Of a stretch of DNA of 43,019 nucleotides, positions 2,877 to 42,969 are shown piece by piece. How positions within the stretch are numbered: position 1 is the stretch's first letter; each line of letters begins with the position of its first letter. Position numbers and translations under genes: made by a program. The notes under the pieces were generated by a model. That model saw nothing but the letters and a program-made list of their open reading frames with translations, did no database searches and was not told the origin of the DNA. This DNA is from a virus, in the UHGV virus genome UHGV-0172637; one strand, written 5' to 3'.

Positions 2877-4115
2877 TTACTTTTTCATCACCTTTTCAGC
2901 AACACCAGCAATTGCCTCAAGTCCATCAAACATTGCTGGTATATTATTTTCATTGTTTTGTATTGGACTAAAAATAAGAGCATCAAAAGAGTCTAAAACT
3001 TTCTCAATAGCAATGTTATTTTTTCTTCTATATTCAACATACCCATCAATGAAAGCACATAAGCTGAGCCTTAGATCAATCTGCATAAGTTGAGTTCTTA
3101 AAGCCTTCGCTTCTAAATATGAAAGTCTGAAAAAATAAATAATTGCCATCTCAATAGTAATAAATGGGAATAGAATGAAGATCGCTGAATAATCTTTAGG
3201 ATATAAATCAGGGAAAGAAAAATGGATTATTACAGCAATCACAGGAGCAATGAATACAGTCCCAAATAAATTTTTATAATTCATTTCAGTTGTAGAAAGC
3301 TCTTTCTCTTTTTTTTCTTTTATTATGTTAAAACCAGAGCTTAACCCAACAAAATTATACTCTGATTTTAAATTTCTCACACGCTCCTCTAGTGCCTTAA
3401 TTTCATCCCTTGATTCATCCACGTATTTTAAATTAGCATCTGCTTCTAGTTTTCCATCTACAATAGCTTTTTTAATGTCATTATAATTATCAGATATTAA
3501 TGATATGGATGCTTTAGTGTCTTTGTTAATTTTATCAATAGCCAAATCTAAGTTGCTAGAAATTTCATCGAGAAACTTCCGTTTGTTTTCGTCGAGGTCT
3601 GATATAAAGTTTCTAGCATCAGTTAGTTTGTTACTGTTTAGTAACCACTTCATAAGTGAAATAGGTAGTTTGTCTCGAATCCATGAAAATTGGTATTTAC
3701 CTTCATTATCCTTGAAAGTGTTTTCTAATAATGTCAATTTGCTGTCTGTGATAAAGTTAGGCGTGATAATGGAACGAGTGCCTGTCCAATAATAGTACTC
3801 GTACAATACTCTTAACAAGGTTGACAAAAAATCAATCTTGTCTTTCTTGTAATCGTCAACTTGAAATTCCATGTGCAACAATATATTGTCTTGATTAAAA
3901 CCTGTATTCTCATCTAAATGTTGTGGGTTGTTATTTATTATTGATATAAAAGTCGACCATGCTGAGTCCAATGTAGTATAGAATAAAGATATGCTATTAT
4001 CTTTCTTTTTGGCGGATTTCTTGGACATTTCTTCAAACCTAATAAGATCTCTACTAATTATAGTATTTGTTTCCTTTATTGAATTAAGTATTTTATTATC
4101 GCTATATAGTCCCAT
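2877..4115 (-). CDS. Hypothetical membrane-anchored protein (coiled-coil region, two C-terminal TM helices), AT-rich accessory gene
   Basis: 412 aa; Lys/Asn/Ile-rich, visibly AT-rich DNA; hydrophobic segments LFGTVFIAPVIAVIIHF and YSAIFILFPFITIEMAIIYFF; heptad-like segment DESRDEIKALEERVRNLKSE. Confidence 0.6.
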   Translation of the reverse strand: MGLYSDNKILNSIKETNTIISRDLIRFEEMSKKSAKKKDNSISLFYTTLDSAWSTFISIINNNPQHLDENTGFNQDNILLHMEFQVDDYKKDKIDFLSTLLRVLYEYYYWTGTRSIITPNFITDSKLTLLENTFKDNEGKYQFSWIRDKLPISLMKWLLNSNKLTDARNFISDLDENKRKFLDEISSNLDLAIDKINKDTKASISLISDNYNDIKKAIVDGKLEADANLKYVDESRDEIKALEERVRNLKSEYNFVGLSSGFNIIKEKKEKELSTTEMNYKNLFGTVFIAPVIAVIIHFSFPDLYPKDYSAIFILFPFITIEMAIIYFFRLSYLEAKALRTQLMQIDLRLSLCAFIDGYVEYRRKNNIAIEKVLDSFDALIFSPIQNNENNIPAMFDGLEAIAGVAEKVMKK

Positions 4116-13730: not shown

Positions 13731-14147
13731 GTGCGTGATATGCAGAAAGTTTTAGATTTATGGGGGGCGTGGGCCGCGAGCGATTCATGCCATGTTGATT
13801 ACTCTCCGATTGCTGCGGGCTTCAAAGGGTTACTGCCGCAAACAAGTAAAACTCGGATTCAATGCACTGATGATGATGGGCTGGTAATAGAGGGGTGTAT
13901 GTCGCGCCTTAGCAGAAAGAGGCCATACGATTATCAACTATTGGTCGTGCACTATATCTACCGGGTGTCCAAGCGCCAAATGGCAAAGCACCGAAAGAAA
14001 AGTGAAAAGCAGATCCGAATCGAAATGCAACTGGCGGAAGGGTTTATTGAAGGGTGTCTGTCTATGCTGGATATCCCCCTTGAGATGGATCTGGTTGTAT
14101 ATGTGGAAAATCATCAAAAAAGCACTAGTGCGGTCCGCACTTTTTGA
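13731..14147 (+). CDS. Late-gene antiterminator Q
   Basis: 138 aa; N-terminal VLDLWGAWAA... and Cys cluster resemble lambdoid Q-family antiterminators; located just upstream of late region. Confidence 0.7.
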   Translation: MRDMQKVLDLWGAWAASDSCHVDYSPIAAGFKGLLPQTSKTRIQCTDDDGLVIEGCMSRLSRKRPYDYQLLVVHYIYRVSKRQMAKHRKKSEKQIRIEMQLAEGFIEGCLSMLDIPLEMDLVVYVENHQKSTSAVRTF

Positions 14148-14254: not shown

Positions 14255-14917
14255 ATGGATATAATTCATTTACTGGAAGTGCTTAATCCTCTCGAAAACG
14301 TTGTAACTGTCAAAATCGACAACGACAAAAACTTGTTTACGATGTTTGGCGATTTATTAATTACATTAGCCCCTGCAGTGATAGCGGGTATTGCGATGGT
14401 GGTTTCTTATAAGCAATTCAAAACGAGCTTACACAGGCAAAGTGAGCAATTTGAACTGGGAATAAAGCAACAAATTAATACATTAAAAATTAATACACAA
14501 CTTGCTACTGAAGTTGAATTGATGAAAGAGGATTGCAAGGCATTAAGAGAAACTTATGTTAGCTATTTAGATGTCACTTCATTACTTTATAGAAGCCAAT
14601 GCGATTTTAAAAATTATAGTGGTCAATTTGATGATAATGCAATTAAGAGTCGCAATATAGCACATGAAAATATAATGACCTACAGTAGTAAGTTTTTGCA
14701 AACTAGAATTTTATTATTCTCTTATCTTAATCTTGAAATTCCCGAAGAGAAAAAACTACAAGAATGTATTATTGCTATTGGTGACTGTGCATTTAATGGA
14801 GACGGAACTGGGAAAGATATTGGAAAGTTACAAGGTGATGGTGCGACTCTCTGCTTTGAGTTAATAAAGAGGAAACGCCAGGCAATCTTCAGTTTGGTAG
14901 AAACCATTACCGAATAA
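14255..14917 (+). CDS. Hypothetical single-pass membrane protein, AT-rich accessory gene
   Basis: 220 aa; TM helix LLITLAPAVIAGIAMVVSY; visibly AT-rich; RBS TAGGTGAG; sits between Q and the lysis genes. Confidence 0.6.
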   Translation: MDIIHLLEVLNPLENVVTVKIDNDKNLFTMFGDLLITLAPAVIAGIAMVVSYKQFKTSLHRQSEQFELGIKQQINTLKINTQLATEVELMKEDCKALRETYVSYLDVTSLLYRSQCDFKNYSGQFDDNAIKSRNIAHENIMTYSSKFLQTRILLFSYLNLEIPEEKKLQECIIAIGDCAFNGDGTGKDIGKLQGDGATLCFELIKRKRQAIFSLVETITE

Positions 14918-15093: not shown

Positions 15094-16146
15094 ATGAAAA
15101 ATACTGTAAAAATAAACAGTGTTGAGTTAATCAACGCTGACAGCCTGCATTACGTCGCCACCCTCCCGGATAACTCTATTGATCTGATAGTTACGGATCC
15201 GCCTTACTTCAAAGTGAAGCCCAACGGCTGGGACAACCAATGGAAGGGGGACGAGGACTACTTACGCTGGCTTGATAGCTGTCTGGCTGAGTATGCTCGC
15301 GTTCTTAAACCTGCTGACAGCATTTACCTGTTTTGTGGTCACCGACTGGCCTCAAATATAGAGATTATGATGCGTGCCCGGTTCAACGTTTTGAATCACA
15401 TCATTTGGGCAAAACCATCGGGTCGCTGGAATGGATGTAACAAAGAAAGCCTGCGTGCGTACTTTCCATCTACGGAACGGATTTTGTTTGCTGAGCTCTA
15501 TCTTGGGCCGTACACAGGTAAAGAGGATGTTTACGAAAGGAAAAGCACAGAGCTAAAGCAGCACATTATGACGCCGCTGATTGATTACTTCCGTAATGCC
15601 CGTGAATCACTGGGTGTCAGCTCGAAAGAAATAGCTGAGGCAACCGGAAAGAAAAACATGGCGTCACACTGGTTCGGTGCAAGCCAATGGCAACTACCAA
15701 ATGAAGTGGACTATAGAAAATTGCAGGAACTGTTCACTCGGATCGCTATCGATAAGCACATTCAGCAGAAGCTTGAACATCCTCACCACCAGCTGATAGC
15801 TACCTATCAGTCATTAAACCGCAAGTATTCAGAATTGCTGGAGGAATACAAAACCCTCCGGCGCTGCTTTTCTGTTTCCGCTCTTGTTCCGTATACCGAC
15901 GTATGGACGCATAAACCTGTTCAGTTTTATCCAGGCAAACATCCATGCGAAAAACCTGCCGACATGCTGAAGCAGATCATTAGCGCCAGCAGCAGGCCGG
16001 GGGATATTGTTGCCGATTTCTTTATGGGCTCTGGTTCAACTGTGAAAGCAGCAATAGAACTTGGCCGTCGGGCGATCGGCGTAGAACTGGAGGAAGACAG
16101 GTTTATACAGACCACCGAAGAGGTGGAAAAACTGAAAAAATCATAA
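15094..16146 (+). CDS. DNA methyltransferase, beta-class (N6-adenine or N4-cytosine)
   Basis: DPPY motif near N-terminus (LIVTDPPYF) and SAM-binding FFMGSGST near C-terminus (beta-class motif order); third MTase in the prophage. Confidence 0.7.
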   Translation: MKNTVKINSVELINADSLHYVATLPDNSIDLIVTDPPYFKVKPNGWDNQWKGDEDYLRWLDSCLAEYARVLKPADSIYLFCGHRLASNIEIMMRARFNVLNHIIWAKPSGRWNGCNKESLRAYFPSTERILFAELYLGPYTGKEDVYERKSTELKQHIMTPLIDYFRNARESLGVSSKEIAEATGKKNMASHWFGASQWQLPNEVDYRKLQELFTRIAIDKHIQQKLEHPHHQLIATYQSLNRKYSELLEEYKTLRRCFSVSALVPYTDVWTHKPVQFYPGKHPCEKPADMLKQIISASSRPGDIVADFFMGSGSTVKAAIELGRRAIGVELEEDRFIQTTEEVEKLKKS

Positions 16147-16291
16147 CGATCACCACGCTTCCCCGTTGCTGTGGTGATCACCATCTTCAGGCACCGGGAA
16201 TCATCCTTAATTTTTACTTGAACATAAGAGCCAGGTTGCCTGATCCCCTTCAATCACACACAGCGCCATCCGAAAAATCGGAGGTGAGGCT

Positions 16292-16570
16292 ATGACCAGA
16301 ATGAGCACCATTTACAGCAGACTTTCATATGGAACAGGAACCACGCTGACCGGCTGCGGTGTATCAGCGAAGGCATATGCCGAAACAGCTAAAACAGCAA
16401 AAGAGGTGTCCTGGATGTTAGCCGACAGAATTGCAGGGTTAAGCCTGAGCGACTGGGCAATTATCGTCGGTATCGCATGCACCGTTATCACCTGTGCAGT
16501 GAACTGGTATTACAGGAAAAAGGAAAGGGAGGATCGGCTTAATGGCAATGTCACCAAAGCTGAAGAATAA
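16292..16570 (+). CDS. Holin with dual-start motif
   Basis: 92 aa; Met1-Thr-Arg-Met4 dual start, hydrophobic segment LSDWAIIVGIACTVITCAVNWYY, charged C-terminus; first gene of lysis cassette. Confidence 0.7.
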   Translation: MTRMSTIYSRLSYGTGTTLTGCGVSAKAYAETAKTAKEVSWMLADRIAGLSLSDWAIIVGIACTVITCAVNWYYRKKEREDRLNGNVTKAEE

Positions 16571-17090
16571 ACTGAGCGCAGCGGTCGTTGGTTTGATTCT
16601 TGCGGGGGCTTCTGCACCTGTGATTCTCGATCAGTTTCTTAATGAGAAAGAGGGTAATAGCCTTACGGCATACCGCGACGGTGGCGGACTCTGGACCATT
16701 TGCCGTGGCGCCACGATGGTTGATGGTAAGCCAGTAGTTCAGGGCATGAAGCTGTCTTCTGAGAAATGCGCCCAGGTAAACGCCATAGAACGCGACAAAG
16801 CGCTGGCGTGGGTTGAGCGAAGTATTAAGGTACCACTGACCGAACCACAGAAAGCCGGGATCGCGTCTTTCTGCCCATATAACATTGGCCCCGGAAAATG
16901 TTTCCCATCTACGTTCTATAAGCGGATCAATGCGGGCGACCGTAAAGGAGCCTGTGAAGCGATCCGCTGGTGGATTAAAGACGGTGGCCGCGATTGTCGC
17001 CTGACCAAAGGCCAGAAAAATGGGTGCTATGGTCAGGTAGAGCGGCGAGATCAGGAAAGCGCGCTGGCGTGCTGGGGGATAGACCAGTGA
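16542..17090 (+). CDS. Endolysin, phage lysozyme with N-terminal signal-arrest-release (SAR) domain
   Basis: N-terminal weakly hydrophobic Gly/Ala-rich segment LSAAVVGLILAGASAPVIL followed by lysozyme-like catalytic region (E...D...T motif: EGNSLTAYRDGGGLWTICRG). Confidence 0.8.
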   Translation: MAMSPKLKNKLSAAVVGLILAGASAPVILDQFLNEKEGNSLTAYRDGGGLWTICRGATMVDGKPVVQGMKLSSEKCAQVNAIERDKALAWVERSIKVPLTEPQKAGIASFCPYNIGPGKCFPSTFYKRINAGDRKGACEAIRWWIKDGGRDCRLTKGQKNGCYGQVERRDQESALACWGIDQ

Positions 17091-17650
17091 ACAGAAGTCT
17101 CGTTTTTGTTGGGATGGCAGCTATCATCTTCATCGCGGTGCTCTGTGTGCTGCTGGCCCGCAGTAATGCCGCGTTGGCCACGTCAGAGAGCGACAACCGG
17201 GTACTGCGTAGCGACAACGCGCTACAGACGGCGGTGATAACTACTCAGGCCTTCAACTTCAACCGGTTTAACCAGATAGCAGAGAATACCAACCACCTTA
17301 ATTCGCTAATAGATGCTGGAACAGAGAAAACCATCATTGAATACCGGGAGATTTTACGACGTGAAAAAACCTGTGATTTGCCTGTTCCTGCTGATGTCGC
17401 TGGTGGGCTGCTCAACTACACGAACCGTTTACGTGCCAGTGCAATGTACTCAGATTCCGGGGACGCTGACACAGCCGGTGATAGTCCCATTGCCTCCCGC
17501 GCGCTGACGTACTGCCAAGCCGTTATGTGGATCAATCCTTTATTGTCGGCTATTGAAAAGGCGAATAATCAGTTGAGTAGCATACGGGATCTTGAACGAA
17601 ACAGAGGATTAGAGCTAAGAAAAAACGTGAGACCTAACGTGCGGTTTTAA
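17087..17650 (+). CDS. Spanin inner-membrane subunit (Rz-like)
   Basis: GTG start overlapping endolysin stop; N-terminal TM FVGMAAIIFIAVLCVLL; contains nested Rz1 in +1 frame. Confidence 0.7.
   Translation: MNRSLVFVGMAAIIFIAVLCVLLARSNAALATSESDNRVLRSDNALQTAVITTQAFNFNRFNQIAENTNHLNSLIDAGTEKTIIEYREILRREKTCDLPVPADVAGGLLNYTNRLRASAMYSDSGDADTAGDSPIASRALTYCQAVMWINPLLSAIEKANNQLSSIRDLERNRGLELRKNVRPNVRF
17361..17507 (+). CDS. Spanin outer-membrane lipoprotein subunit (Rz1-like), embedded in Rz
   Basis: 48 aa from GTG 17361; lipobox LVGC, proline-rich mature part; entirely nested in Rz reading frame +1. Confidence 0.7.
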   Translation: MKKPVICLFLLMSLVGCSTTRTVYVPVQCTQIPGTLTQPVIVPLPPAR

Positions 17651-17660
17651 CACTTTAAGA

Positions 17661-17688
17661 TTCACATTTTGTAAACTTTTGCTATATT
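17661..17688 (+). promoter_or_regulatory. Candidate sigma70 promoter for the two-gene accessory cassette
   Basis: TTCACA (17661-17666) - 16 nt - TATATT (17683-17688), about 65 nt upstream of ATG 17752. Confidence 0.4.
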
Positions 17689-17751
17689 GCAACTGATGCC
17701 AACGGTCGTTTCCCTATTAAAATAAATTGTTATCGTGTTGGCAGTTTTTTT

Positions 17752-18195
17752 ATGACTACACGGAATGATGTTATGTCAGAAGTTGCAGCGGAGCTAGCCG
17801 AGCAGACTTGGCCTGATTTTTATCCAAAAGGTGTTCCCCCAAAAACGGCTGTGGATGCCGAGGGTGAGTTTTATCGTTTGGTTAGAGCTAACCCCCCGAC
17901 TCCAAATTGTTTCCTTTCTACCCATGAAGAGTATCCGAATAGACATAAAAAATGTCGTGGAGAAGCTCTTCAGTGCGTATATGGCACATCTTTTTTTTCA
18001 GAAGAAAGAGGTGCTACAGATGCAAAGGCTAAGTTTCCAGCGGCGTTAGGTGATCGTACCGTCGCTAAAGGTAACGTAATGCCATTCATGGGGGTCATGA
18101 AAAAGACTTTTGCGGATCCTGCTCACTATACAATATGGCTTACGGTAAATTGTTCTATCCATGAGCATTTTGCTTGTTTAGGAGAAGGCGAATGA
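17752..18195 (+). CDS. Hypothetical protein A of two-gene cassette (Cys/His-rich, possible metal-binding)
   Basis: 147 aa; C68-x6-C75 and C134-x2-H-x-H-x2-C142 patterns; no recognisable enzymatic motif; stop overlaps start of next gene (ATGA). Confidence 0.55.
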   Translation: MTTRNDVMSEVAAELAEQTWPDFYPKGVPPKTAVDAEGEFYRLVRANPPTPNCFLSTHEEYPNRHKKCRGEALQCVYGTSFFSEERGATDAKAKFPAALGDRTVAKGNVMPFMGVMKKTFADPAHYTIWLTVNCSIHEHFACLGEGE

Positions 18196-19484
18196 GTAAC
18201 GTTTTTCTGCCTAATACAATGATGGGGACTCTGCGCTATAAAAGGGTGTATGAGTTTTTCGAAGAGCCTCGTTTCTTTTCAGCAGAGAATGAAGTTAGTT
18301 CATTATTTGTTGTTTATTGGATTGGTGAGGATGAGGACGCCGATAGCTGGTATGTTATCCCTGTATCGCCGACACGATTGGAGTTAATTGAAAGAAAAAG
18401 AATTGATTTGCGTTCAGTTTTAATTGATCAGGAACAGTCTTTTTTCTACGAAGTACGCGCTCCTTATGATCGGGAGGTTGCACCTACATGGAATGTTAAA
18501 GGCGTAGATGCCGTCTATGAAAATGCTTTACCAGCTCAGGGACTGTTTATTAGCTCTGTGGTTCCTGTTTTAGAAAATGGTCGAATCGGTGAAGCAATTA
18601 AGTATTCAACACATGAGATTCATTTAGAAAAAAGCTCAAAGAAAAGTGCTGGAAATTTGGTGCTAAGTCACGTTTCGAATGTGTGTGATAGCTTTAGTGC
18701 GTTATATGACAGTTTGCTGGAGTTTAGCGGTCTCAAAGACAAGCTACGTCCAGTTGATGCTCGTCCTGGTTCGTTCATCCTTTCATTCCAAGCTGAAAAG
18801 CTGAACGCCTATGAAGAGATTTTACGTGATTTGAGCGCTCTGATTGAGCGTCGTGCTGATATAGTCGATTTCATACAAAACAATGGGATAGATATCCAAG
18901 CCTTTTCTGATTTGCTTCAGTCTATTGTATCGACTGGAACAAATATGGAATTAAAAAGCAATCAGACTGGTGAGGTTATATTTCTGCTGACTAAAGCAGG
19001 AGCTGAGTTCTATCTTAGGGTAATCAGTAGGATGTCTGCACTTGCAGTTAGTGGTCATCAAATTCCGCAGGCAGATACTTTAGAAAAAGTTTTTAAAGTA
19101 GTTGAAGTCAAATGGAGTGGGGAGCCTTGTACTGTAGAGAATACAGGTTTGCAAGAAAGACACGTTTATTATTACCTACATGCTGCAAAGGTATTAGGGT
19201 TTCTGAATGCTAATGGCAATGTAACTGCGATGGGGCAAAAGTTAATTCAGTCTGGACAAGAGAACCAATATAAAATTGCTGCAAGATGCTTTGAGGTGAG
19301 CCATATTGGTTGGGCTTGGATTAACTGGTCAGAAGTTGAGAATTTATCTCAAATAGATCCAGATACAGCTGAGAAATTTTTACTTGAACAGTGCAATTCA
19401 TTAAGTAAAGACACTATAGCCAGAAGGTCGCGAACTCTTAGACATTGGGGCAAAGAGCTTAAGGAAAAATATACTCCGCTCTAA
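18192..19484 (+). CDS. Hypothetical protein B of two-gene cassette (430 aa)
   Basis: ATG 18192 preceded by GGAGAAGG RBS; visibly AT-rich; no P-loop or nuclease motif recognised. Confidence 0.6.
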   Translation: MSNVFLPNTMMGTLRYKRVYEFFEEPRFFSAENEVSSLFVVYWIGEDEDADSWYVIPVSPTRLELIERKRIDLRSVLIDQEQSFFYEVRAPYDREVAPTWNVKGVDAVYENALPAQGLFISSVVPVLENGRIGEAIKYSTHEIHLEKSSKKSAGNLVLSHVSNVCDSFSALYDSLLEFSGLKDKLRPVDARPGSFILSFQAEKLNAYEEILRDLSALIERRADIVDFIQNNGIDIQAFSDLLQSIVSTGTNMELKSNQTGEVIFLLTKAGAEFYLRVISRMSALAVSGHQIPQADTLEKVFKVVEVKWSGEPCTVENTGLQERHVYYYLHAAKVLGFLNANGNVTAMGQKLIQSGQENQYKIAARCFEVSHIGWAWINWSEVENLSQIDPDTAEKFLLEQCNSLSKDTIARRSRTLRHWGKELKEKYTPL

Positions 19485-19511
19485 TTCCAAATATACAGTA
19501 TCGCAATTCCA

Positions 19512-19536
19512 CACCCCGCTAATGCGGGGTTTTTTG
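19512..19536 (+). terminator. Rho-independent terminator ending the two-gene cassette
   Basis: CCCCGC-TAAT-GCGGGG stem-loop (19514-19529) followed by TTTTTT. Confidence 0.8.
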
Positions 19537-19559
19537 TTGATAATTACTATCATTTGTGC

Positions 19560-19640
19560 GGGTCCTCCCGGCGAGGTGGCCTGCCACGGGGCGGGAGCGG
19601 CGCGGAAAACGGCTAGTTTTTCGGATCTAAGGTCATCATC
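19560..19640 (+). other. Candidate cos site (cohesive-end region) upstream of terminase small subunit
   Basis: GC-rich ACGGGGCGGGAGCGGCGCGGAAAACGGC (19586-19613) resembles lambda cosN region ACGGGGCGGCGACCTCGCGGGTTTTCGC from memory. Confidence 0.4.
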
Positions 19641-19705
19641 ATCATTTGCGCAGGTTATTGATCTAATTAGAGGCTATTTCGCGCAGATGTCGAATCGTTT
19701 AAAAA

Positions 19706-20206
19706 GTGTTCACCATCATGGACCAGGAAATTGCCGCTTTAAAACTGAACATCAACCAACTGGCTGGGATTACTGGCGTACACCGTCAGACGGTCGCCGC
19801 CAGGCTGAAAAATATTGAACCGGCCCCAGGTAGCAACAGCAAATTAAAGCTTTACCTGATAACCGATATTCTGACCGAACTGATGATCCCCACTGTGTCA
19901 GCCAATATCGATGATATGCCGCCATCGGACAGGCTTTCCCACTGGAAAGCAGAGAATGAGAGACTCAAGTTCGAGCAGGATACGGGGCAGCTCATTCCCG
20001 CCGATGAAGTTGCGCGCGAATTCTCATTGATGGCGAAAGCCGTCGTCATGGTACTTGAAACCCTCCCTGATGTACTTGAGCGTGACTGTGCATTAACGCC
20101 TGTTGCGGTTTCTCGCGTGCAGAGCGTTATTGATGACCTACGCGATCAGATGGCGGAGAGGGTGCAGGACGTTGAAGCAGAGGAGGAAGAGCCAGAGGAG
20201 GACTGA
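19706..20206 (+). CDS. Terminase small subunit (Nu1-like)
   Basis: N-terminal HTH LNINQLAGITGVHRQTVAARLKNIEP similar to lambda Nu1 N-terminus; acidic C-terminus; start ambiguous (GTG 19706 or ATG 19718). Confidence 0.7.
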   Translation: MFTIMDQEIAALKLNINQLAGITGVHRQTVAARLKNIEPAPGSNSKLKLYLITDILTELMIPTVSANIDDMPPSDRLSHWKAENERLKFEQDTGQLIPADEVAREFSLMAKAVVMVLETLPDVLERDCALTPVAVSRVQSVIDDLRDQMAERVQDVEAEEEEPEED

Positions 20207-22308
20207 TGGCAAAGCGGGCATCCGCCAGAGGCATCCGCCGCGATGTTTCCGGTATCTTACGTGCCCCGCGTCGAATGCAGGTGGCCGATGCGGTCAGTAC
20301 TTATATGCGCGTGCCAATGGGGGCGGGTAACTCCGTTCCATGGGATCCGGATCTGGCACCTTACGTGATTGAACCGATGAACTGCCTGGCATCGCGTGAA
20401 TATGACGCGGTAGTGTTTGTTGGTCCGGCGCGAACGGGTAAAACCATTGGTCTGATTGACGGCTGGATTGTTTACAACGTTGTCTGTGATCCGGCTGATA
20501 TGCTCTTGATTCAGATGACTGAGGAAAAGGCGCGCGAGCATTCCAAAAAGCGTCTTGATCGTACATTCCGTTGCAGCCCTGAAGTGAAATCCCGACTGAG
20601 TCCGCGACGTAATGATAACAACGTATATGACCGCACGTTTCGTGCCGGTAACTATCTGAAAATAGGCTGGCCATCGGTCAATATCATGTCCTCATCGGAC
20701 TATAAGTGCGTCGCACTGACCGACTATGACCGTTTCCCGGAAGATATTGACGGGGAAGGTGACGCATTTTCCCTGGCATCAAAGCGAACAACAACGTTCA
20801 TGTCGTCAGGTATGACACTGGTTGAGAGTTCGCCGGGCCGCGATATACGTGACACAAAATGGCGCCGTAGCTCACCGCATGAAGCACCTCCCTCAACGGG
20901 GATTCTGGCGCTGTACAACCGCGGTGATCGCCGTCGCCTTTACTGGCCGTGCCCACATTGCGGTGAATATTTCCAGCCTGAAATGGACAACATGACAGGT
21001 TACCGCGATATCGCAGACCCTGTTCAGGCCAGCGAGAAAGCGAGTCTTCAATGCCCTGCCTGTAAAGATCACATCACGCCGGATATGAAGCGTTCGCTGA
21101 ATATGAAAGGCGTGTGGCTGCGCGATGGGCAAACCATCGACAGCGATGGTGTTATCACTGGAGAAGGGCGCCGCTCGCGCATTGCCTCCTTCTGGATGGA
21201 AGGACCCGCCGCCGCGTACCAGACCTGGGCGCAGCTCATCTATAAATTTCTTACTGCCGAGCAGGACTATCAGGCCACCGGCAGCGAGGAAGCACTGAAG
21301 ACGGTAATCAACACCGACTTTGGGCGTCCGTACCTTCCCCGATCCAGCATGGAGCAGCGTAAAAGTGAATTGCTTGAGCAGCGTGCGGAGGATATACCAA
21401 AGCGCTCTGTTCCGGACGGGGTTTGTTTTCTTATGGCGACCGTCGACGTTCAGGCGGGGCGCAACCGGCGTTTTGTTGTTCAGATTACTGGTTACGGCAG
21501 CATGGGAGAGCGCTGGCTGGTGGACCGCTACAACATCCGGCAGTCGATGCGCCATGACGCCAATGGTGAGAGCCAGCAGATTGACCCGGCAAGCTATCCG
21601 GAAGACTGGGATTTATTGCTGACCGATGCGTTTAACAAAGCCTGGCCATTGGCATCGGATCCGACCCGGTGTATGCGGCTGATGGCGATGGCCGTTGACT
21701 CCGGCGGTGAGGATGGTGTGACCGACAACGCTTATAAATTCTGGCGTAAGTGCCGTCGGGAGGGACTAGGAAAACAGGTTTATCTGTTCAAAGGCGACAG
21801 TGTCCGCCGATCAAAACTCATCTCCAGAACCTTTCCTGATAATACCGGACGCTCAAGCCGACGAGCACAGGCTTCTGGTGATGTCCCGCTTTACCTGCTC
21901 CAGACCGATGCTCTGAAAGACAGGGTGAACAACGCTTTGTGGCGTGATTCACCTGGCCCTGGCTATGTGCATTTCCCTGACTGGCTCGGCAGCTGGTTTT
22001 ACGATGAACTGACCTATGAGGAGCGTTCGACCGATGGTAAATGGAGTAAGCCGGGACGTGGTGCAAATGAAGCATTTGACCTGCTGGTCTACGCTGATGC
22101 GCTCGCCATCCTCCACGGCTACGAGAAAATCAAATGGCCCGCTGCTCCTGAGTGGGCGAGGCGGGAAACCTGGCTGGAGAACGCGCCGCCGGAAGCTGGC
22201 GAAGCATCATCCCAGGCACCAGAACCAGTACCCGCCAAAAAACGGAAGCGGAAAAAGCCCGTAACCGATGATGCTAACCCTTGGAGTACTTCAGGAGGAT
22301 GGTTGTGA
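20206..22308 (+). CDS. Terminase large subunit (lambda gpA-like)
   Basis: 700 aa; start overlaps TerS stop; zinc-finger-like CPHCGEYF segment and overall architecture like lambda A. Confidence 0.85.
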   Translation: MAKRASARGIRRDVSGILRAPRRMQVADAVSTYMRVPMGAGNSVPWDPDLAPYVIEPMNCLASREYDAVVFVGPARTGKTIGLIDGWIVYNVVCDPADMLLIQMTEEKAREHSKKRLDRTFRCSPEVKSRLSPRRNDNNVYDRTFRAGNYLKIGWPSVNIMSSSDYKCVALTDYDRFPEDIDGEGDAFSLASKRTTTFMSSGMTLVESSPGRDIRDTKWRRSSPHEAPPSTGILALYNRGDRRRLYWPCPHCGEYFQPEMDNMTGYRDIADPVQASEKASLQCPACKDHITPDMKRSLNMKGVWLRDGQTIDSDGVITGEGRRSRIASFWMEGPAAAYQTWAQLIYKFLTAEQDYQATGSEEALKTVINTDFGRPYLPRSSMEQRKSELLEQRAEDIPKRSVPDGVCFLMATVDVQAGRNRRFVVQITGYGSMGERWLVDRYNIRQSMRHDANGESQQIDPASYPEDWDLLLTDAFNKAWPLASDPTRCMRLMAMAVDSGGEDGVTDNAYKFWRKCRREGLGKQVYLFKGDSVRRSKLISRTFPDNTGRSSRRAQASGDVPLYLLQTDALKDRVNNALWRDSPGPGYVHFPDWLGSWFYDELTYEERSTDGKWSKPGRGANEAFDLLVYADALAILHGYEKIKWPAAPEWARRETWLENAPPEAGEASSQAPEPVPAKKRKRKKPVTDDANPWSTSGGWL

Positions 22309-22520
22309 ACCGTGTTGATATTGAAGCCATGATCCAGCGTTATACCGAAGCCGAAATGGCGGTGTTGGATGGCAAAACTATCCGTTTCAATGGGCAGGAA
22401 ATGACGATGGAGAACCTGTCGGAAATCCGTAAAGGGCGGCAGGAGTGGGAGCGTCGTCTCTCATCTCTTATTTCTCATCGCCGAGGGCGACCCGGTTACC
22501 GACTGGCGAGGTTTAAATGA
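22299..22520 (+). CDS. Head-tail joining protein (lambda gpW-like)
   Basis: ~73 aa, between terminase and portal; C-terminal RRGRPGY like lambda W; start ATG 22299 or GTG 22305. Confidence 0.6.
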   Translation: MVVNRVDIEAMIQRYTEAEMAVLDGKTIRFNGQEMTMENLSEIRKGRQEWERRLSSLISHRRGRPGYRLARFK

Positions 22521-24025
22521 GCCTTTTAGATGATGCGATTGGTGTCTTTTCGCCTGGCTGGAAAGCTGCCCGTCTGCAGGCGCGCGCGAAAATCAGGGCA
22601 TATGAAGCCGTTACCCCGACCAGAACGCACAAAGGGCGCCGTGAAAACCGTTCGGCAGATCAGCTCAGCAAAATGGGGGCTGTATCACTGCGGGAGCAGG
22701 CCCGGTGGCTCGATAACAACCATGATCTGGTGATTGGGGTGTTCGATAAGCTTGAAGAACGGGTGGTGGGTAAAGCCGGAATTATTGTTGAACCCCATCC
22801 CAAACTGATGAACGGTCAAATCGCCAAAAAGCTGGCCGATCAGATCCGTAATAAATGGGCAGAATGGTCTGTCAGGCCAGATGTCACAAACCAGTTTACC
22901 CGTCCGATGCTTGAGCGCCTGATGTTGCGTACCTGGCTGCGGGATGGCGAAGTGTTTGCCCAGCTTGTCAGTGGAACCGGGAATGGTCTTACGCCAGCAG
23001 CCGGTATTCCTTTCTGGCTTGAAGCGCTTGAACCCGATTTTATTCCCATGAACAGCGATGCTGCCAGCCAGCTTAATCAGGGAGTATTCGTCGACAACTG
23101 GGGCAGACCAAGGAAATATCAGGTTTATAAAAGCCTGCCCGTTTCGGGCCGTCAGCTTGATACCAAAGAAGTGGATGCGGAAAACATGCTGCATCTTAAA
23201 TTTGTCCGCCGTCTGCACCAGACCCGGGGCGTATCGATGCTGTCCGGCGTACTGATGCGCCTCAGCGCACTCAAAGAATATGAAGACGCCGAGCTCACCG
23301 CCGCACGTATTGCTGCTGCGCTTGGCATGTATATCAAAAAGGGGGACGGGCAAAGCTTCGAAGAGAGTAACAGTTCTTCCGATGATGATGATCGGGAAGT
23401 GATGATTCAGCCAGGCATCATTTATGACGATCTTAAGCCAGGTGAAGATATCGGCATGGTGAAATCTGACCGGCCCAATCCTAACCTTGAAACCTTCCGT
23501 AATGGGCAACTTCGCGCTGTCGCAGCAGGCAGCCGACTCAGCTTTTCAAGCACAGCCAGAAACTACAACGGCACCTACAGCGCTCAGCGGCAGGAACTGG
23601 TGGAATCAACAGACGGCTATCTCATTTTGCAGGACTGGTTTATTGGTGCGGTGACCCGGCCAATGTACCGCGCCTGGCTGAAAATGGCGGTGGCCGCTGG
23701 CGAGATTAATTTACCCCGCGGTCTGGATATGGAATCGCTGTACTCGGCAGTGTATTCCGGCCCTGTTATGCCGTGGATCGATCCGGTTAAAGAGGCCAAT
23801 GCCTGGAAGTTACAGATCCGGGGCGGAGCGGCAACGGAATCCGACTGGGTCCGCGCCAGCGGACGTAACCCGAACGATGTGAAGGCGCGCCGGAAGGCAG
23901 AGATCGACGAAAACAAAGAGATGGGGCTGGTGTTTGACACTGACCCTGCCAATGACAAAGGAGGCACAAGTGCCGAAGCCAAAGAACCGGGCGCACCACC
24001 GTCCGAAAGCCAGCGCAAAAAGTAA
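22517..24025 (+). CDS. Portal protein (lambda gpB-like)
   Basis: 502 aa, position after terminase/W; start overlaps W stop. Confidence 0.85.
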   Translation: MSLLDDAIGVFSPGWKAARLQARAKIRAYEAVTPTRTHKGRRENRSADQLSKMGAVSLREQARWLDNNHDLVIGVFDKLEERVVGKAGIIVEPHPKLMNGQIAKKLADQIRNKWAEWSVRPDVTNQFTRPMLERLMLRTWLRDGEVFAQLVSGTGNGLTPAAGIPFWLEALEPDFIPMNSDAASQLNQGVFVDNWGRPRKYQVYKSLPVSGRQLDTKEVDAENMLHLKFVRRLHQTRGVSMLSGVLMRLSALKEYEDAELTAARIAAALGMYIKKGDGQSFEESNSSSDDDDREVMIQPGIIYDDLKPGEDIGMVKSDRPNPNLETFRNGQLRAVAAGSRLSFSSTARNYNGTYSAQRQELVESTDGYLILQDWFIGAVTRPMYRAWLKMAVAAGEINLPRGLDMESLYSAVYSGPVMPWIDPVKEANAWKLQIRGGAATESDWVRASGRNPNDVKARRKAEIDENKEMGLVFDTDPANDKGGTSAEAKEPGAPPSESQRKK

Positions 24026-34491: not shown

Positions 34492-34545
34492 CCATGTTGT
34501 AATTACGCTATAGGTAATAAGCCTAATATCAAGGTGATAGGGTAT

Positions 34546-35262
34546 ATGAAGAAATTATATGTTTTGTTACTCAGTACAGTTTTGATTTCTGGGATGAGTC
34601 ACGCCGAAAATGGTTATATTCCTGTATTATATAATCTATCAACTATGTTCGATTTTAATCCTGTTAAAGGACCAGTGAAATCACTTAGTACTATAGTGGA
34701 GAGTAATGGCAAGGTTACTTATAAAGTATTATTAAAGCTAAATAAAAAAGGTTGTATTGAAAGCCTGAGCTTGGATAATATTTCAAATGGCTTTAAAACA
34801 GAACTTAATAATGATGGGGTAAATCTTGTAGGCAAGAGAGGTGAAAACCCGTACTTTGTTGGTCTAACGGAAGATTGTAATATTCTTTCTCAGAATGATA
34901 ATGGTGAGAAAAATACATTCTCTCTCACAGCAAGTGGAATGATTAAAGATACTTATTATTTAGGCCAAAAAATAGCAACGCATTTTTATGATGATAATGA
35001 TAATTTAATACGCTCTGAGTTTTATGGCTCAGATAAAATTTTGTCCAGTAATGAAGTTATTTATTTAGATAAAAATACTAAACCTCTTGACTACAAGATT
35101 ATAAACGAAAGTAGCTATGCACAAGGATATACTGCTACAACAACTTGTAAATACAACGCGAAACTTGTTCCAGAGTTATGTAATCTGATAATACAGAATG
35201 CAGGGAATCCGCTTCCTAAACCGACAGTAATTACAGCACATACAAGCGTGGAATTTTATTAA
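34546..35262 (+). CDS. Secreted hypothetical protein, AT-rich accessory gene between tail genes I and J
   Basis: 238 aa; Sec signal peptide MKKLYVLLLSTVLISGMSHA; Asn/Lys/Tyr-rich; ends in aromatic residue; own terminator. Confidence 0.65.
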   Translation: MKKLYVLLLSTVLISGMSHAENGYIPVLYNLSTMFDFNPVKGPVKSLSTIVESNGKVTYKVLLKLNKKGCIESLSLDNISNGFKTELNNDGVNLVGKRGENPYFVGLTEDCNILSQNDNGEKNTFSLTASGMIKDTYYLGQKIATHFYDDNDNLIRSEFYGSDKILSSNEVIYLDKNTKPLDYKIINESSYAQGYTATTTCKYNAKLVPELCNLIIQNAGNPLPKPTVITAHTSVEFY

Positions 35263-41165: not shown

Positions 41166-41894
41166 CTAATGTTTGTCCGATGATGTGAGTTGCTGCAAAC
41201 ATATATGTTCAGGATGCGGCCTGGATGCTATTTTTTTCCCTGAAGCGGAAAACATTACTACTGTACCTTTAACCCTGGTTTTAACATTCTCGAAATGCTC
41301 TGAAAGTATTTGTTTTAACCCTTCTTTGGAATCTTCGGTGTTTGAAAAGATGCCTTTCTGATTGTATATGCTCATCAGTTTTTTACCGAAGGTATTATGC
41401 ACAACGCCATCACCAACAATTGTGGCGCCATACAGAGTACCATCGTCAGTTAAGGCCTGCGCCGCATTGCGTATTACACAGGTTTTTGTCGATATATTTC
41501 CAGGCAGGCAGTGAAGAAGGTAAAACATTGAAATGGAATCAAATTGACCATGCAATGCTGCGGGATAAGGTTCAAAAACATCATGGCAAATTTTATGTTG
41601 AATTTTTGACTTTCCAGCCCTTGTTGATGCAGCGTTCAGGCTAGCTTCGTTCAAATCCATTAGAGATTTCAAACCACTTTCAGGTACGTGAGTAAGGTAA
41701 AACCCAGTTCCAACACCAATATCCAGATGGTTGTTACCTAAATGTTCCAGAAAGTGTGGAAGAAGGTATTCCTTTGTAGGGCATCCCCATGCAAGTCGAT
41801 TTGATACACCCAAAACCCACCAGTCATAAAGTTTTAGTGTGAATGGTGTGTAAACTTTAGCCCCATCATCTGTGTTTTTTTTCATTAATTTCAC
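41166..41894 (-). CDS. Class I SAM-dependent methyltransferase (small-molecule/protein type, not an obvious DNA MTase)
   Basis: Motif I LDIGVGTGFY; 242 aa; AT-rich 5' half. Confidence 0.6.
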   Translation of the reverse strand: MKLMKKNTDDGAKVYTPFTLKLYDWWVLGVSNRLAWGCPTKEYLLPHFLEHLGNNHLDIGVGTGFYLTHVPESGLKSLMDLNEASLNAASTRAGKSKIQHKICHDVFEPYPAALHGQFDSISMFYLLHCLPGNISTKTCVIRNAAQALTDDGTLYGATIVGDGVVHNTFGKKLMSIYNQKGIFSNTEDSKEGLKQILSEHFENVKTRVKGTVVMFSASGKKIASRPHPEHICLQQLTSSDKH

Positions 41895-41985
41895 CGTGTT
41901 ATAGTTTTGGTCATGAATTAAATCAATAATGGCGATGAATTACAAGGGGTTAAATGATGCCACGACGTAGCGATATTGAAATGGC

Positions 41986-42300
41986 TTGGCATGCTTCGAC
42001 ATGCGGGCATCGCGTTCACATTTCGGGGAAGGGATACTCCAGGGTGCGCTGCTTGTGGTAGATGCATCACTTTCTGCCTGCGATGGCTCACTGCTGATAT
42101 GTGCAATCGACGGGGAGTTCAGGATCAAACGATATCGAACACATCCTCAACCCCACCTGATTAATCTGGAGAGCGGGAGAAGGGAGGTGCTACCAGTAGA
42201 TGATGACGGTTACGGTTCTGCACCCGCTATATTCGGGGTGATTACTTACATCATTAATGATGCCAGGAACGCGGAGTTTGATGATTGTCCGGTGATGTAA
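41986..42300 (+). CDS. UmuD-prime-like S24 peptidase-fold protein lacking the N-terminal arm
   Basis: 104 aa; aligns to UmuD C-terminal domain (LLVVDASLSACDGSLLICAIDGEFRIKRY...IFGVITYII); upstream frame does not encode a UmuD N-terminus. Confidence 0.55.
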   Translation: MACFDMRASRSHFGEGILQGALLVVDASLSACDGSLLICAIDGEFRIKRYRTHPQPHLINLESGRREVLPVDDDGYGSAPAIFGVITYIINDARNAEFDDCPVM

Positions 42301-42969
42301 TCATATTGGCGTTATTAGTTCGGCCCCCTGATTTTTCACATTCCCAACGGCACGCGTTACGGCGTGCCATATAAATTTATCAGCCGGCACAACACCGTCG
42401 GCTGCAATTTCCGCTGCTTCTTTCCCTCCAACATCCTGCCTCATCCATTCGCGCGCGGCTTCCGGTAGCAGTATCAGCGGTCGTCTGTCGTGAATATCAA
42501 CCAGTCCTTTGTCAGCTGCAGCTGTAACTATCAGGAAACCTTCTGCTTCATCTCCACGTTCAAATGGTGTGCTGCCAATCGCCGCCATAAATATCGGCTG
42601 ACCATCGGCCCGATGAATGAAGTAAGGCTGCTTCGTGTCACCTTCCTTTTTCCATTCGTACCATCCATCAGCAAAGCAAATTGCACGACCGTGCTGCCAG
42701 AGTGGTTTAAACATTCTGCTGGTGGCCGCAGTTTCAGATCGAGCATTAATTAGCGGTGGCTTATCCCACCATCCAGGGGCATATCCCCAAATGACAGGGT
42801 CAAGGTGCAGTTGTTCATCACGTTCGCTCAGAAGCAAAACTTTTGTTCCTGGCGCTACGTTGAATCTTCCGATGGGTTCTGGATCGTATGGAATGTCGCG
42901 TTCTGATTCATCAGCGAGCAGGGCAAGATAATCTTCACGCGTCATTGACTGTGCAAAGCGTCCACACAT
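42301..42969 (-). CDS. SOS response-associated peptidase (SRAP/YedK family)
   Basis: 222 aa beginning MCGRF (catalytic Cys2), conserved SRAP signature throughout. Confidence 0.85.
   Translation of the reverse strand: MCGRFAQSMTREDYLALLADESERDIPYDPEPIGRFNVAPGTKVLLLSERDEQLHLDPVIWGYAPGWWDKPPLINARSETAATSRMFKPLWQHGRAICFADGWYEWKKEGDTKQPYFIHRADGQPIFMAAIGSTPFERGDEAEGFLIVTAAADKGLVDIHDRRPLILLPEAAREWMRQDVGGKEAAEIAADGVVPADKFIWHAVTRAVGNVKNQGAELITPI

Follow-up and report, generated by a model that had tools for sequence, protein, structure and literature searches.

What does a pair of overlapping genes do between the lysis genes and the terminase genes of a prophage, and does it encode, as the original prediction proposed, an undescribed defence or anti-defence system? 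The question is raised by a locus in a stretch of viral DNA of 43,019 nucleotides (UHGV virus genome UHGV-0172637), hereafter called the window, whose host element is a Salmonella-type lambdoid prophage. We consider it fairly probable that the cassette is a moron that specifies a two-protein abortive-infection system of the toxin–antitoxin type, distantly related to PD-T4-10.

An AT-rich insert between lysis and packaging genes

The two genes, A and B, form an AT-rich insert between Rz/Rz1 and the cos/terminase region (Table 1). The original prediction had placed them between the spanin genes and cos/terminase, and both open reading frames that it delimited (17752-18195 and 18192-19484, sharing an ATGA overlap) are present between Rz/Rz1 on the left and terS/terL on the right, with the start of A corrected to 17773. 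The AT-richness that it described is borne out by a GC content of 40.6% in the cassette, as against 49.5% in the left flank and 54.2% in the right flank. Comparison with related prophages sets the boundaries of the module at approximately 17661 and 19537 (ranges: 17661, or 17731, on the left and 19484-19538 on the right), close to the extent first noted (17661-19536); homology to other prophages resumes exactly at 17661, and the right-hand breakpoints lie at 19535/19542 and 19538. The related phage mEp043 has different genes in the gap from Rz to terS, in agreement with the claim that this position is a cargo hotspot. A type II methyltransferase is encoded at 15094-16146, 1.6 kb from the pair, with lysis genes between.

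Transcription signals of its own had also been claimed for the unit, and both are found. The promoter, with 10 of 12 consensus matches and a TG ahead of the -10, is the best sigma-70-like site within 16000-20500, and the terminator combines a stem of 7 pairs with a run of T. The -35 hexamer and TTTGCTATATTGC are unchanged across 8 loci with approximately 70-97% coding-DNA identity to the window; several of these loci have reached saturation at synonymous sites when compared with it (pS 0.70-0.84 for the pairs computed). The extended -10 is found again in sub-families down to approximately 47% B identity. Downstream of it lies a leader inverted repeat, for which RNAalifold gives a stem of 8 bp with invariant arms, 0 compensatory changes and 4 AU-to-GU changes. 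The order -10, 8 nt, TGCCA(A/G), N26-38, TTGGCA is present in 28 of the 49 distinct upstream regions versus 2.9% of random windows; folding of the single leader sequence gives the stem no support (z +0.9), and an Rfam search of the leader gave no match. The repeat is a candidate either for a 5'-terminal mRNA hairpin or for an operator.

An own promoter and terminator, a deviant composition and a variable presence between conserved phage genes are the marks of a moron, and the cassette bears all of them. It is presumably a prophage moron expressed in the lysogen, since a sigma-70 promoter and a terminator of its own inside the late region fit such expression.

Table 1. Features of the cassette and its flanks (window positions)
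Feature	Position	Strand	Description
Rz	ends 17650		Left flank
Rz1, embedded in Rz	17313-17507		Left flank; lipobox LVGC and Pro-rich tail, read off the sequence
Sigma-70-type promoter	17661-17688	+	-35 TTCACA (17661-17666), 16-nt spacer, TG-extended -10 TGCTATATT (17680-17688)
Leader inverted repeat	17697-17743	+	TGCCAACG (17697-17704), partner within CGTGTTGGCA (17736-17743), variable spacer
Gene A	17773-18195	+	140 aa (alternative start 17752, 147 aa); predicted ADP-ribosyltransferase fold, homologue of the antitoxin PD-T4-10A
Gene B	18192-19484	+	430 aa; presumed toxin/effector; N-terminus homologous to PD-T4-10B
N-terminal DUF6575 module of B	18192-18860	+	aa 1-223
C-terminal tandem winged-helix region of B	19074-19481	+	approximately aa 295-430; weak DUF7226 match
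Intrinsic terminator	19513-19536	+	7-bp stem (19513-19530), 6 G-C, loop 4, T run; approximately 50 nt ahead of cos
cos	near 19589		Right flank; inferred from the start of one related phage record
terS	19706		Right flank
terL	20206		Right flank

Conservation of the pair and features of its products

Wherever B is intact (81/81 loci), an A-family open reading frame lies directly upstream of it on the same strand, and the pair is thus conserved as a unit. These loci span Pseudomonadota, Cyanobacteriota, Bacteroidota and Actinomycetota, ranging from Enterobacterales to Vibrio, Nostoc, Hymenobacter and Rhodococcus, and throughout them B starts either within the end of A or immediately after it, the 4-nt overlap being read directly in some. 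Three prophage cargo slots are occupied, namely between Rz and terS, between Q and holin, and next to an integrase. Among public assemblies, 610 blocks list a protein identical to A, whose available source names point to Salmonella, and a gene for a 430-aa DUF6575 protein comes next in 4/4 places shown. A search of 50,697 deposited phage genomes found no homologue of A or B; the pair occurs in integrated elements and large plasmids only and in no deposited phage isolate, an absence that fits a gene benefiting the lysogen. A structural or lytic function, which would have spoken against the original prediction, was rejected for both proteins because related phages lack the pair, and because it occurs in three slots with transcription signals of its own.

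For gene A, the ATG at 17773 (Met8 of the longer reading) is conserved, the ATG at 17752 is replaced by TTG or missing in homologues, and a database protein 100% identical to A has 140 aa; judged from these sequences, 17773 is most likely the true start and the product has 140 aa. The gene is under strong purifying selection (dN/dS 0.02-0.07). Conserved residues, in the numbering of the 147-aa form, are R42, S80, G114, H125 and W129; across 133 representatives of the A superfamily, R42 is kept in 130, S80 in 132 and H125 in all. The metal-binding Cys/His cluster proposed originally did not survive this comparison: less than 10% of the 133 representatives have Cys or His in the columns of C68, C75, C134, H139 and C142, and 51 have either in that of H137, several cluster residues vary within the close family too, and a metal site was therefore rejected. 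Approximately half of the wider superfamily has another trio of Cys (positions 28, 74 and 77), which A of the window lacks.

The structure predicted for A has the characteristic ADP-ribosyltransferase (ART) fold. Canonical ART enzymes carry a triad (R-S-E or H-Y-E) on strands 1, 2 and 5; in A, R42 and S80 are present and H125, with which the fifth strand of the model begins, stands in place of Glu, as mapped by DSSP on the predicted model with no structural superposition. Since the third catalytic position is His and not the Glu of known transferases, A may be inactive. No match to the ART families of Pfam or the PDB was seen at the level of sequence; Pfam gave nothing at E<=1 for A or for any of its relatives (0/133), and comparison of the A and B sequences with solved structures returned noise only, such as myoglobin and a nitroreductase. 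The ART fold of a PD-T4-10-type A protein appears to be new, with no earlier report in the literature searchable here.

Gene B has the signals expected of translational coupling, an ATGA overlap with A at 18192-18195 and a strong Shine-Dalgarno sequence, AGGAG, at 18180-18184. Its homologues form 47 clusters, mostly of 420-434 aa, a dN/dS of 0.057 indicates strong purifying selection, and the AF2 model of the protein has a pLDDT of 87.4. B had at first been described as free of assignable motifs. This stands as far as catalysis is concerned, for Pfam, PADLOC and structure searches found no catalytic motif, toxin domain, nuclease family or nuclease fold; it does not stand for domains, since aa 3-223 match Pfam DUF6575 (PF20215) at 3e-40 (138.3 bits, cut-off 26.6). 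Foldseek of B against the PDB gave nothing at E<=1e-3, and PHROGs and NCBIfam searches of the pair gave nothing either. Membership in the RexA family of the lambda Rex exclusion system was rejected (13.1 bits, cut-off 25, along no more than 46 residues), as were matches to ZorA, HA2 and VanU, all far under their thresholds.

B is built of modules: a constant N-terminal one, always alongside A, and a swappable C-terminus. The first 110-130 residues are the sole part common to the deepest relatives and the PD-T4-10_B model, and the DUF6575 module is for this reason proposed to be cognate to A. Distant relatives carry other domains in place of the C-terminal region, which in the window matches DUF7226 (Pfam PF23871) weakly and which, from its modelled winged helices, is presumed to be a nucleic-acid-binding or sensor module.

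Relation to PD-T4-10 and proposed mode of action

PD-T4-10 is a toxin–antitoxin pair of E. coli ECOR65, found by selection for phage resistance, that protects against T-even phages by abortive infection; when each component was expressed singly, B alone was toxic, and A neutralises B and is not deletable (Vassallo 2022, Nat Microbiol; PMC9519451). The system is functional as a two-gene clone (Vassallo 2022). The HHpred tables of the same study hold no hits for PD-T4-10A or PD-T4-10B, and its text mentions 'DUF6575' among its 21 systems. Both proteins are 'of unknown function' there (PMC9519451) and in a 2024 survey, and the searchable literature assigns a function to neither.

Likeness to this system was judged against the PADLOC profiles (PDLC04023/PDLC04024), the native proteins being RCO36089.1 and RCO36088.1, encoded at 196254-197857 of QOYX01000006. 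A matches PD-T4-10_A with an E value of 1.9e-6 (25.6 bits) over profile positions 25-143 of 148 (80%), and so do 77/133 A-superfamily representatives, the best at 8e-14; a profile search of the protein database with the A-superfamily alignment returned close relatives only. B matches PD-T4-10_B with an E value of 2.5e-5, its aa 29-95 aligning with profile positions 34-98 of 353 (65 positions), which is not most of the profile, and distant DUF6575 partners match at 1e-7 to 8e-12, reaching positions 10-129. The N-terminus of B aligns with that of the PD-T4-10_B model, and the arrangement is shared as well, with a small protein of approximately 140-165 aa encoded first and a larger one second in overlapping frames. 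The differences are that B of the window is longer (430 aa), with a DUF6575 core and a tandem winged-helix C-terminus, and that the profile matches are weak, covering about 65 (in relatives up to about 120) of the 353 positions of PD-T4-10_B.

By these sequence comparisons the cassette, which is widespread in prophages, is a distant relative of PD-T4-10 and not wholly undescribed. The guess that it is a defence module gains from the PADLOC matches of A and B to both components in the correct order; 'undescribed system' was too strong, because the family was discovered functionally in 2022 and B has a named domain. The low coverage of PD-T4-10_B leads us to judge that the coverage cut-offs of annotation pipelines probably miss the pair, and, with the match of B confined to 65 of the 353 positions, whatever makes PD-T4-10B toxic may be absent here.

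By analogy, the variant would behave like PD-T4-10 in its neutralisation, its trigger and the action of B. In the lysogen, A and B would be transcribed from the TG-extended promoter as a single mRNA, the terminator would block read-through into the terminase genes, and the ATGA overlap would couple translation of B to that of A. A would hold B inactive by binding its DUF6575 N-terminal module, possibly adding an NAD+-dependent modification, given the ART fold. A superinfecting phage would break this neutralisation, upon which B, with its presumed nucleic-acid-binding tandem winged-helix C-terminus, would arrest or kill the cell before the phage completes, to the protection of sister lysogens and the prophage. 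A more specific version of this scheme, which we hold to be rather doubtful, is that A represents an active Arg-Ser-His branch of the ART fold and serves as an enzymatic antitoxin in the manner of type VII toxin–antitoxin systems, infection being sensed through loss of the modification or a change in NAD+. We know of no earlier toxin–antitoxin or defence case in which an ART-fold protein is the antidote and not the poison. If A is active, the pair would add a new logic to toxin–antitoxin immunity; if it is inactive, annotation pipelines could still recognise a defence family that is probably missed by current models. The predicted ART-fold antitoxin with its conserved set of Arg, Ser, His and Trp, the modular toxin and the deeply conserved promoter and leader provide testable leads.

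The ART fold is typical of toxins and not of antitoxins, so that the roles of A and B could differ here. A would then be an ART-type effector akin to DarT, CmdT and the RES toxins, acting on a protein, DNA or RNA target of phage or host, and B a sensor or regulator whose winged-helix domain would detect phage nucleic acid and so set A to work. That 130-133 of the 133 representatives keep R42, S80 and H125 hints at a ligand-binding or catalytic site in A, and B has no recognisable catalytic domain, while its C-terminus, of DNA-recognition type, is exchanged from lineage to lineage, as is often seen in sensors. We nevertheless find an effector role for A unlikely, as in PD-T4-10 only B is toxic alone and A is neutralising and not deletable (PMC9519451), the canonical catalytic Glu is His in A, and its sequence matches no ART family of Pfam or the PDB. 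A toxin–antitoxin pair may also serve prophage maintenance instead of defence. Overlapping genes with the small protein first, an own promoter, a possible operator-like inverted repeat and an occurrence confined to integrated elements and large plasmids, never deposited phage isolates, would suit an addiction or stabilisation module that penalises loss of the prophage and has no anti-phage role; against this, the homologous PD-T4-10 came out of a selection for resistance to phages and works through abortive infection, post-segregational killing offers little to a prophage integrated in the chromosome, and the pair occupies classical moron slots beside other cargo of benefit to the lysogen, which makes pure addiction quite improbable.

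A restriction-like or methylation-sensing function, linking the FokI/BrxA-like domain of B to a neighbouring methyltransferase, is suggested by the resemblance of the B C-terminus to type IIS recognition domains and BrxA, by the methyltransferase that the window encodes and by an N6/N4 or Dam-type enzyme within approximately 400 nt in many independent loci (L002/3, L008-10, L016, L017, L018, L041, L050, L052-55, L079 and L073 in our numbering), in varied orientations and from three families. Methyltransferases are, however, common cargo of the same prophage slots, and their adjacency may only reflect shared hotspots. The enzyme of the window is separated from the pair by the lysis genes, Salmonella prophages with an identical pair lack it (L085, L087), none adjoins the pair in the E. 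coli loci L004-6, PD-T4-10 worked as a two-gene clone, and B has no nuclease motif or domain. A DNA-modification link is accordingly very unlikely in our estimation, and type II/IIS restriction–modification proper was rejected for want of a nuclease in B and because the methyltransferase lies 1.6 kb off and is absent from the identical Salmonella loci. Anti-defence cargo, in which A would be an inhibitor with an ART fold, comparable to AcrIF11, and would disable a host defence on behalf of the phage, is hardly credible: a large second protein is obligately linked (81/81 loci), A and B each have homologues in a defence system, the 50,697 deposited phage genomes hold no homologue, and an own sigma-70 promoter and terminator in the late region fit expression in the lysogen. 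The abortive-infection moron related to PD-T4-10 is the reading that we prefer.

Comparison with known systems

Among systems with an ART protein, RES-Xre, ParST, MbcTA, DarTG and CmdTAC all use it as the toxin, whereas A of the window is the homologue of a neutralising partner. In contrast to ART-fold toxins and Tpt1/KptA, A has His as its third motif in place of Glu and shows no similarity to them at the level of sequence, and the pair has no Xre, macrodomain or chaperone partner. Membership of A in the RES-Xre family was rejected, the Pfam search having found no RES domain and the partner being a DUF6575 protein and not Xre.

The modelled C-terminus of B resembles BrxA of BREX and the recognition domains of FokI and N.BspD6I at the level of fold only (7-16% identity), and the window differs from these systems in having neither a BREX nor a restriction-enzyme gene set, and no nuclease domain in B.

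In its organization the cassette resembles the lambda bor type of moron, a concept that reportedly goes back to Juhala and Hendrix. Lambda bor is itself a moron of the slot between Rz and cos, and both are units of promoter, gene or genes and terminator, of deviant GC content, that lie between conserved late genes and are presumably expressed from the prophage; where bor encodes a single lipoprotein, the window has a two-gene pair of the toxin–antitoxin type.

Organisation and limits of the cassette

The two ORFs of the original prediction, A (the small first gene) and B (the second gene), were found where claimed, with an ATGA overlap at 18192-18195, AGGAG 7 nt before the B start and no ORF of more than 50 codons on the opposite strand of the region. 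The start of A was, however, moved to the conserved ATG at 17773 (140 aa), because homologues lack ATG 17752 or have TTG in its place, and because the database protein 100% identical to A has 140 aa. The promoter and terminator attributed to the cassette were likewise located, and its AT-richness holds, with 40.6% GC in 17661-19536 vs 49.5% in 15094-17650 and 54.2% in 19537-24025. The flanks are as described, Rz/Rz1 on one side and cos/terminase on the other, in a late region ~79% identical to the lambdoid phages mEp043, mEp213 and Flotzy. Since mEp043 carries other small ORFs there, the gap between Rz and terS is a variable cargo slot. One related phage record starts at window ~19589, which would place cos ~50 nt past the terminator.

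Features of the cassette and its flanks (coordinates in the window)
Feature	Position	Strand	Remarks
N6/N4 methyltransferase, type II	15094-16146		1.6 kb upstream of the pair, before lysis genes
Holin	16292		left flank
Endolysin	16542		left flank
Rz1 lipoprotein ORF, embedded in Rz	17313-17507		lipobox LVGC and proline-rich tail, read from sequence
Rz	ends 17650		left flank
Promoter-like site, TTCACA-16-TATATT, TG before it	17661-17688	+	best such site in 16000-20500
Inverted repeat TGCCA(A/G)...TTGGCA	arms 17697-17704, 17736-17743		arms invariant, spacer variable
A ORF	17752-18195	+	147 aa from upstream ATG
B ORF	18192-19484 (from ATG)	+	430 aa
Terminator	stem 19513-19530 and T run	+	best such site in 16000-20500
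Small terminase subunit, lambda-type	19706		right flank
Large terminase subunit, lambda-type	20206		right flank

The module boundaries follow from 80-odd related loci. One group of prophages loses similarity over the C-terminal part of Rz and regains it exactly at 17661, with the -35 hexamer; in another, in which the pair precedes an HNH/terminase set, it spans 17731-19484/6; and in prophages that carry the pair elsewhere, terminase-side similarity starts at 19538-19558. These comparisons delimit a mobile unit of ~17661-19537, matching the limits first proposed. Purifying selection is strong on both genes: a close relative gives dN/dS of 0.02 (A) and 0.057 (B), and homologues whose synonymous sites are saturated give 0.06-0.07 for A.

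Conservation of the unit extends to its transcription signals: eight loci, several of them saturated at synonymous sites relative to the window, share without change the -35 hexamer, TTTGCTATATTGC and two leader blocks. The leader pattern begins with an extended -10, TG(C/T)TATATT, followed by 8 nt, TGCCA(A/G), a variable 26-38 nt and TTGGCAG with a T-rich tract; the start codon (ATG) of A comes ~25-35 nt further on. Of 49 distinct upstream regions, 28 have this pattern, which extends down to ~47% B identity and turns up in only 2.9% of random windows. Pairing of the two arms of the repeat would give an 8-bp stem at the predicted mRNA 5' end; no compensatory changes were found in this stem, a single-sequence fold does not favour it, and the element has no match in Rfam. 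The repeat may act as an operator or, in the mRNA, as a 5'-terminal hairpin.

Occurrence of the pair and neighbouring cargo

Homologues of B form 47 clusters, mostly of 420-434 aa, the named ones being from Enterobacterales, Vibrio and Photobacterium. Close homologues of A form 23 clusters, and an A profile run against 1.84 billion representative proteins retrieved 956 relatives (209 at E<1e-10), mostly of 125-145 aa. The pairing sample comprised 62 IMG/VR loci, 10 GTDB genome loci and several assemblies, whose ORFs were searched with the A and B profiles. An A-family ORF lies directly upstream on the same strand in all 81 loci with an intact B, including those of Nostoc, Hymenobacter, Rhodococcus and one unassigned metagenome lineage, and the 4-nt overlap was directly seen in several homologous loci. 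The pair is obligate.

Within prophages the pair is found in at least three places: between Rz and terS (the window and E. coli locus L001), between antiterminator Q and holin (E. coli loci L004-6 and many others), and after the integrase in Vibrio cholerae. Among 5,426 complete E. coli genomes, eight hold a copy of 73% identity in the slot used in the window. The exact A protein is listed in 610 blocks of public assemblies, with source names pointing to Salmonella enterica, and is followed by a 430-aa DUF6575 gene in all four places shown. Five plasmids, two of them megaplasmids, encode homologues, and 50,697 deposited phage genome records contain no homologue of A or B.

Many independent loci, including most non-enterobacterial ones, have DNA methyltransferases next to the pair, and three families are represented (N6_N4 of 350 aa, N6_N4 of ~224-247 aa and Dam-like). 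The methyltransferase genes lie within ~400 nt, in varied orientations (L002/3, L008-10, L016-18, L041, L050, L052-55, L073 and L079): convergent and 12 nt downstream in V. cholerae, convergent and overlapping in L008-10, and upstream in Photobacterium and V. splendidus (by ~50 nt) and in Psychromonas (by 127 nt). The link is not obligatory, since the Salmonella prophages L085 and L087 have an identical pair and another Q module without the methyltransferase. The adjacency may reflect shared cargo hotspots only.

Further ORFs of note occur in the window. Beside the integrase (1397-2572), a very AT-rich island of ~30% GC holds a 411-aa ORF (2877-4112, minus strand) that Pfam and PADLOC do not match and that is a candidate cargo gene. 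Between Q (13731-14144) and the methyltransferase, an AT-rich stretch carries a 220-aa ORF (14255-14914), also without a Pfam or PADLOC match; this three-gene order recurs in locus L084. Within the tail-gene block, after a homologue of lambda tail assembly protein I, a UPF0257-family ORF (34534-35259; Pfam 2.5e-22) in an AT-rich island of 32-41% GC looks like another moron. The right end (41166-42966, minus strand) carries a SAM-dependent methyltransferase-like ORF and an SRAP (SOS-response-associated peptidase) gene, which may be host flank beyond the prophage.

Predicted features of the two proteins

Protein A is predicted to adopt an ADP-ribosyltransferase (ART) fold. ART-type proteins listed with figures are Rhs TreX (5.9), TreTu (5.0), Scabin (5.8) and DarT (5.1 and 4.8); the list also includes cholera-, pertussis- and diphtheria-type toxins, AcrIF11, Tse6 and Tne2. 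All 133 representatives, 24-48% identical, have G114, H125 and W129; 132 have S80 and 130 have R42. DSSP places R42 on strand 1 (FYRLV) of the model, S80 on strand 2 (GTSF) and H125 at the start of the fifth strand, which follows two antiparallel strands and a short loop. Read from DSSP rather than from a superposition, R42, S80 and H125 would be the three ART motif positions, His replacing the catalytic Glu of known transferases. The Cys/His metal site proposed for A did not hold, as its residues fall in unconserved columns of the 133 representatives.

Other positions vary within the superfamily. Position 53 (17908-17910) is Asp in 118 of 133 representatives and Cys in all 21 of the window's sub-family; at this almost universally acidic position, C53 is a change specific to the lineage. 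Roughly half of the representatives have a Cys trio at 28, 74 and 77 (147-aa numbering), formed by the Cys of a CPP motif and a CxxC just before the conserved G-x-S; this trio could be a zinc site. Window A has V28, Q74 and Y77.

Protein B matches Pfam DUF6575 over aa 3-223 (3e-40) and, below the Pfam threshold, DUF7226 over aa 316-419; its AF2 model is confident (pLDDT 87.4). With deep relatives it has only the N-terminal 110-230 residues in common, and the C-terminal halves of the DUF6575 proteins of Nostoc (L007, 5399-6610; E 2e-9) and Hymenobacter (L019, 5995-7200; E 7e-9) match PDC-M63B, an unvalidated PADLOC candidate. B thus combines a constant N-module with a swappable C-module, and the PDC-M63B matches in distant pairs indicate domain swapping behind the former.

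Relation to PD-T4-10

PD-T4-10 originates from E. coli ECOR65 and came out of a selection for T4 resistance. Its two ORFs overlap; B is toxic and resistance is lost without it, A neutralises B and is not deletable, and the mode is abortive infection; the authors' HHpred tables give no domain for either protein (PMC9519451). In a 2024 survey, both still had no assigned function. As the original prediction had advised, PADLOC was run on both cassette proteins, and both components were matched in the right order: A by PD-T4-10_A (E 1.9e-6, profile 25-143 of 148) and B by PD-T4-10_B (E 2.5e-5, profile 34-98 of 353). Bridging matches support the relation, as 77 of 133 A relatives match PD-T4-10_A (best 8e-14) and distant DUF6575 partners match PD-T4-10_B, down to 7.7e-12.

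The anatomy, pairing, homology and predicted folds of the cassette come from the present analysis; the toxin and antidote roles were established for PD-T4-10 alone and would probably extend to the window pair by homology. A would then neutralise B via the DUF6575 N-module, and NAD+-dependent chemistry, if any, would enter into how the two work, as would a trigger and a target of B. In the main alternative the roles are swapped and A is the effector, as would suit an ART fold, which marks the toxin wherever such a system has been characterised; the PD-T4-10 expression data contradict this reading and we regard it as unlikely. With A as antidote, the family would offer an 'antitoxin' with a predicted ART fold.

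The observations behind the original prediction are thus confirmed, the metal site excepted, and its interpretation is partly supported: the cassette is probably a defence-type moron, yet not an undescribed system, its family having already been found experimentally as PD-T4-10. It would probably be missed at standard thresholds. Window A is a member of the PD-T4-10_A superfamily, whereas window B has only the N-terminal module in common with its counterpart, and the cassette is therefore a distant PD-T4-10 variant.
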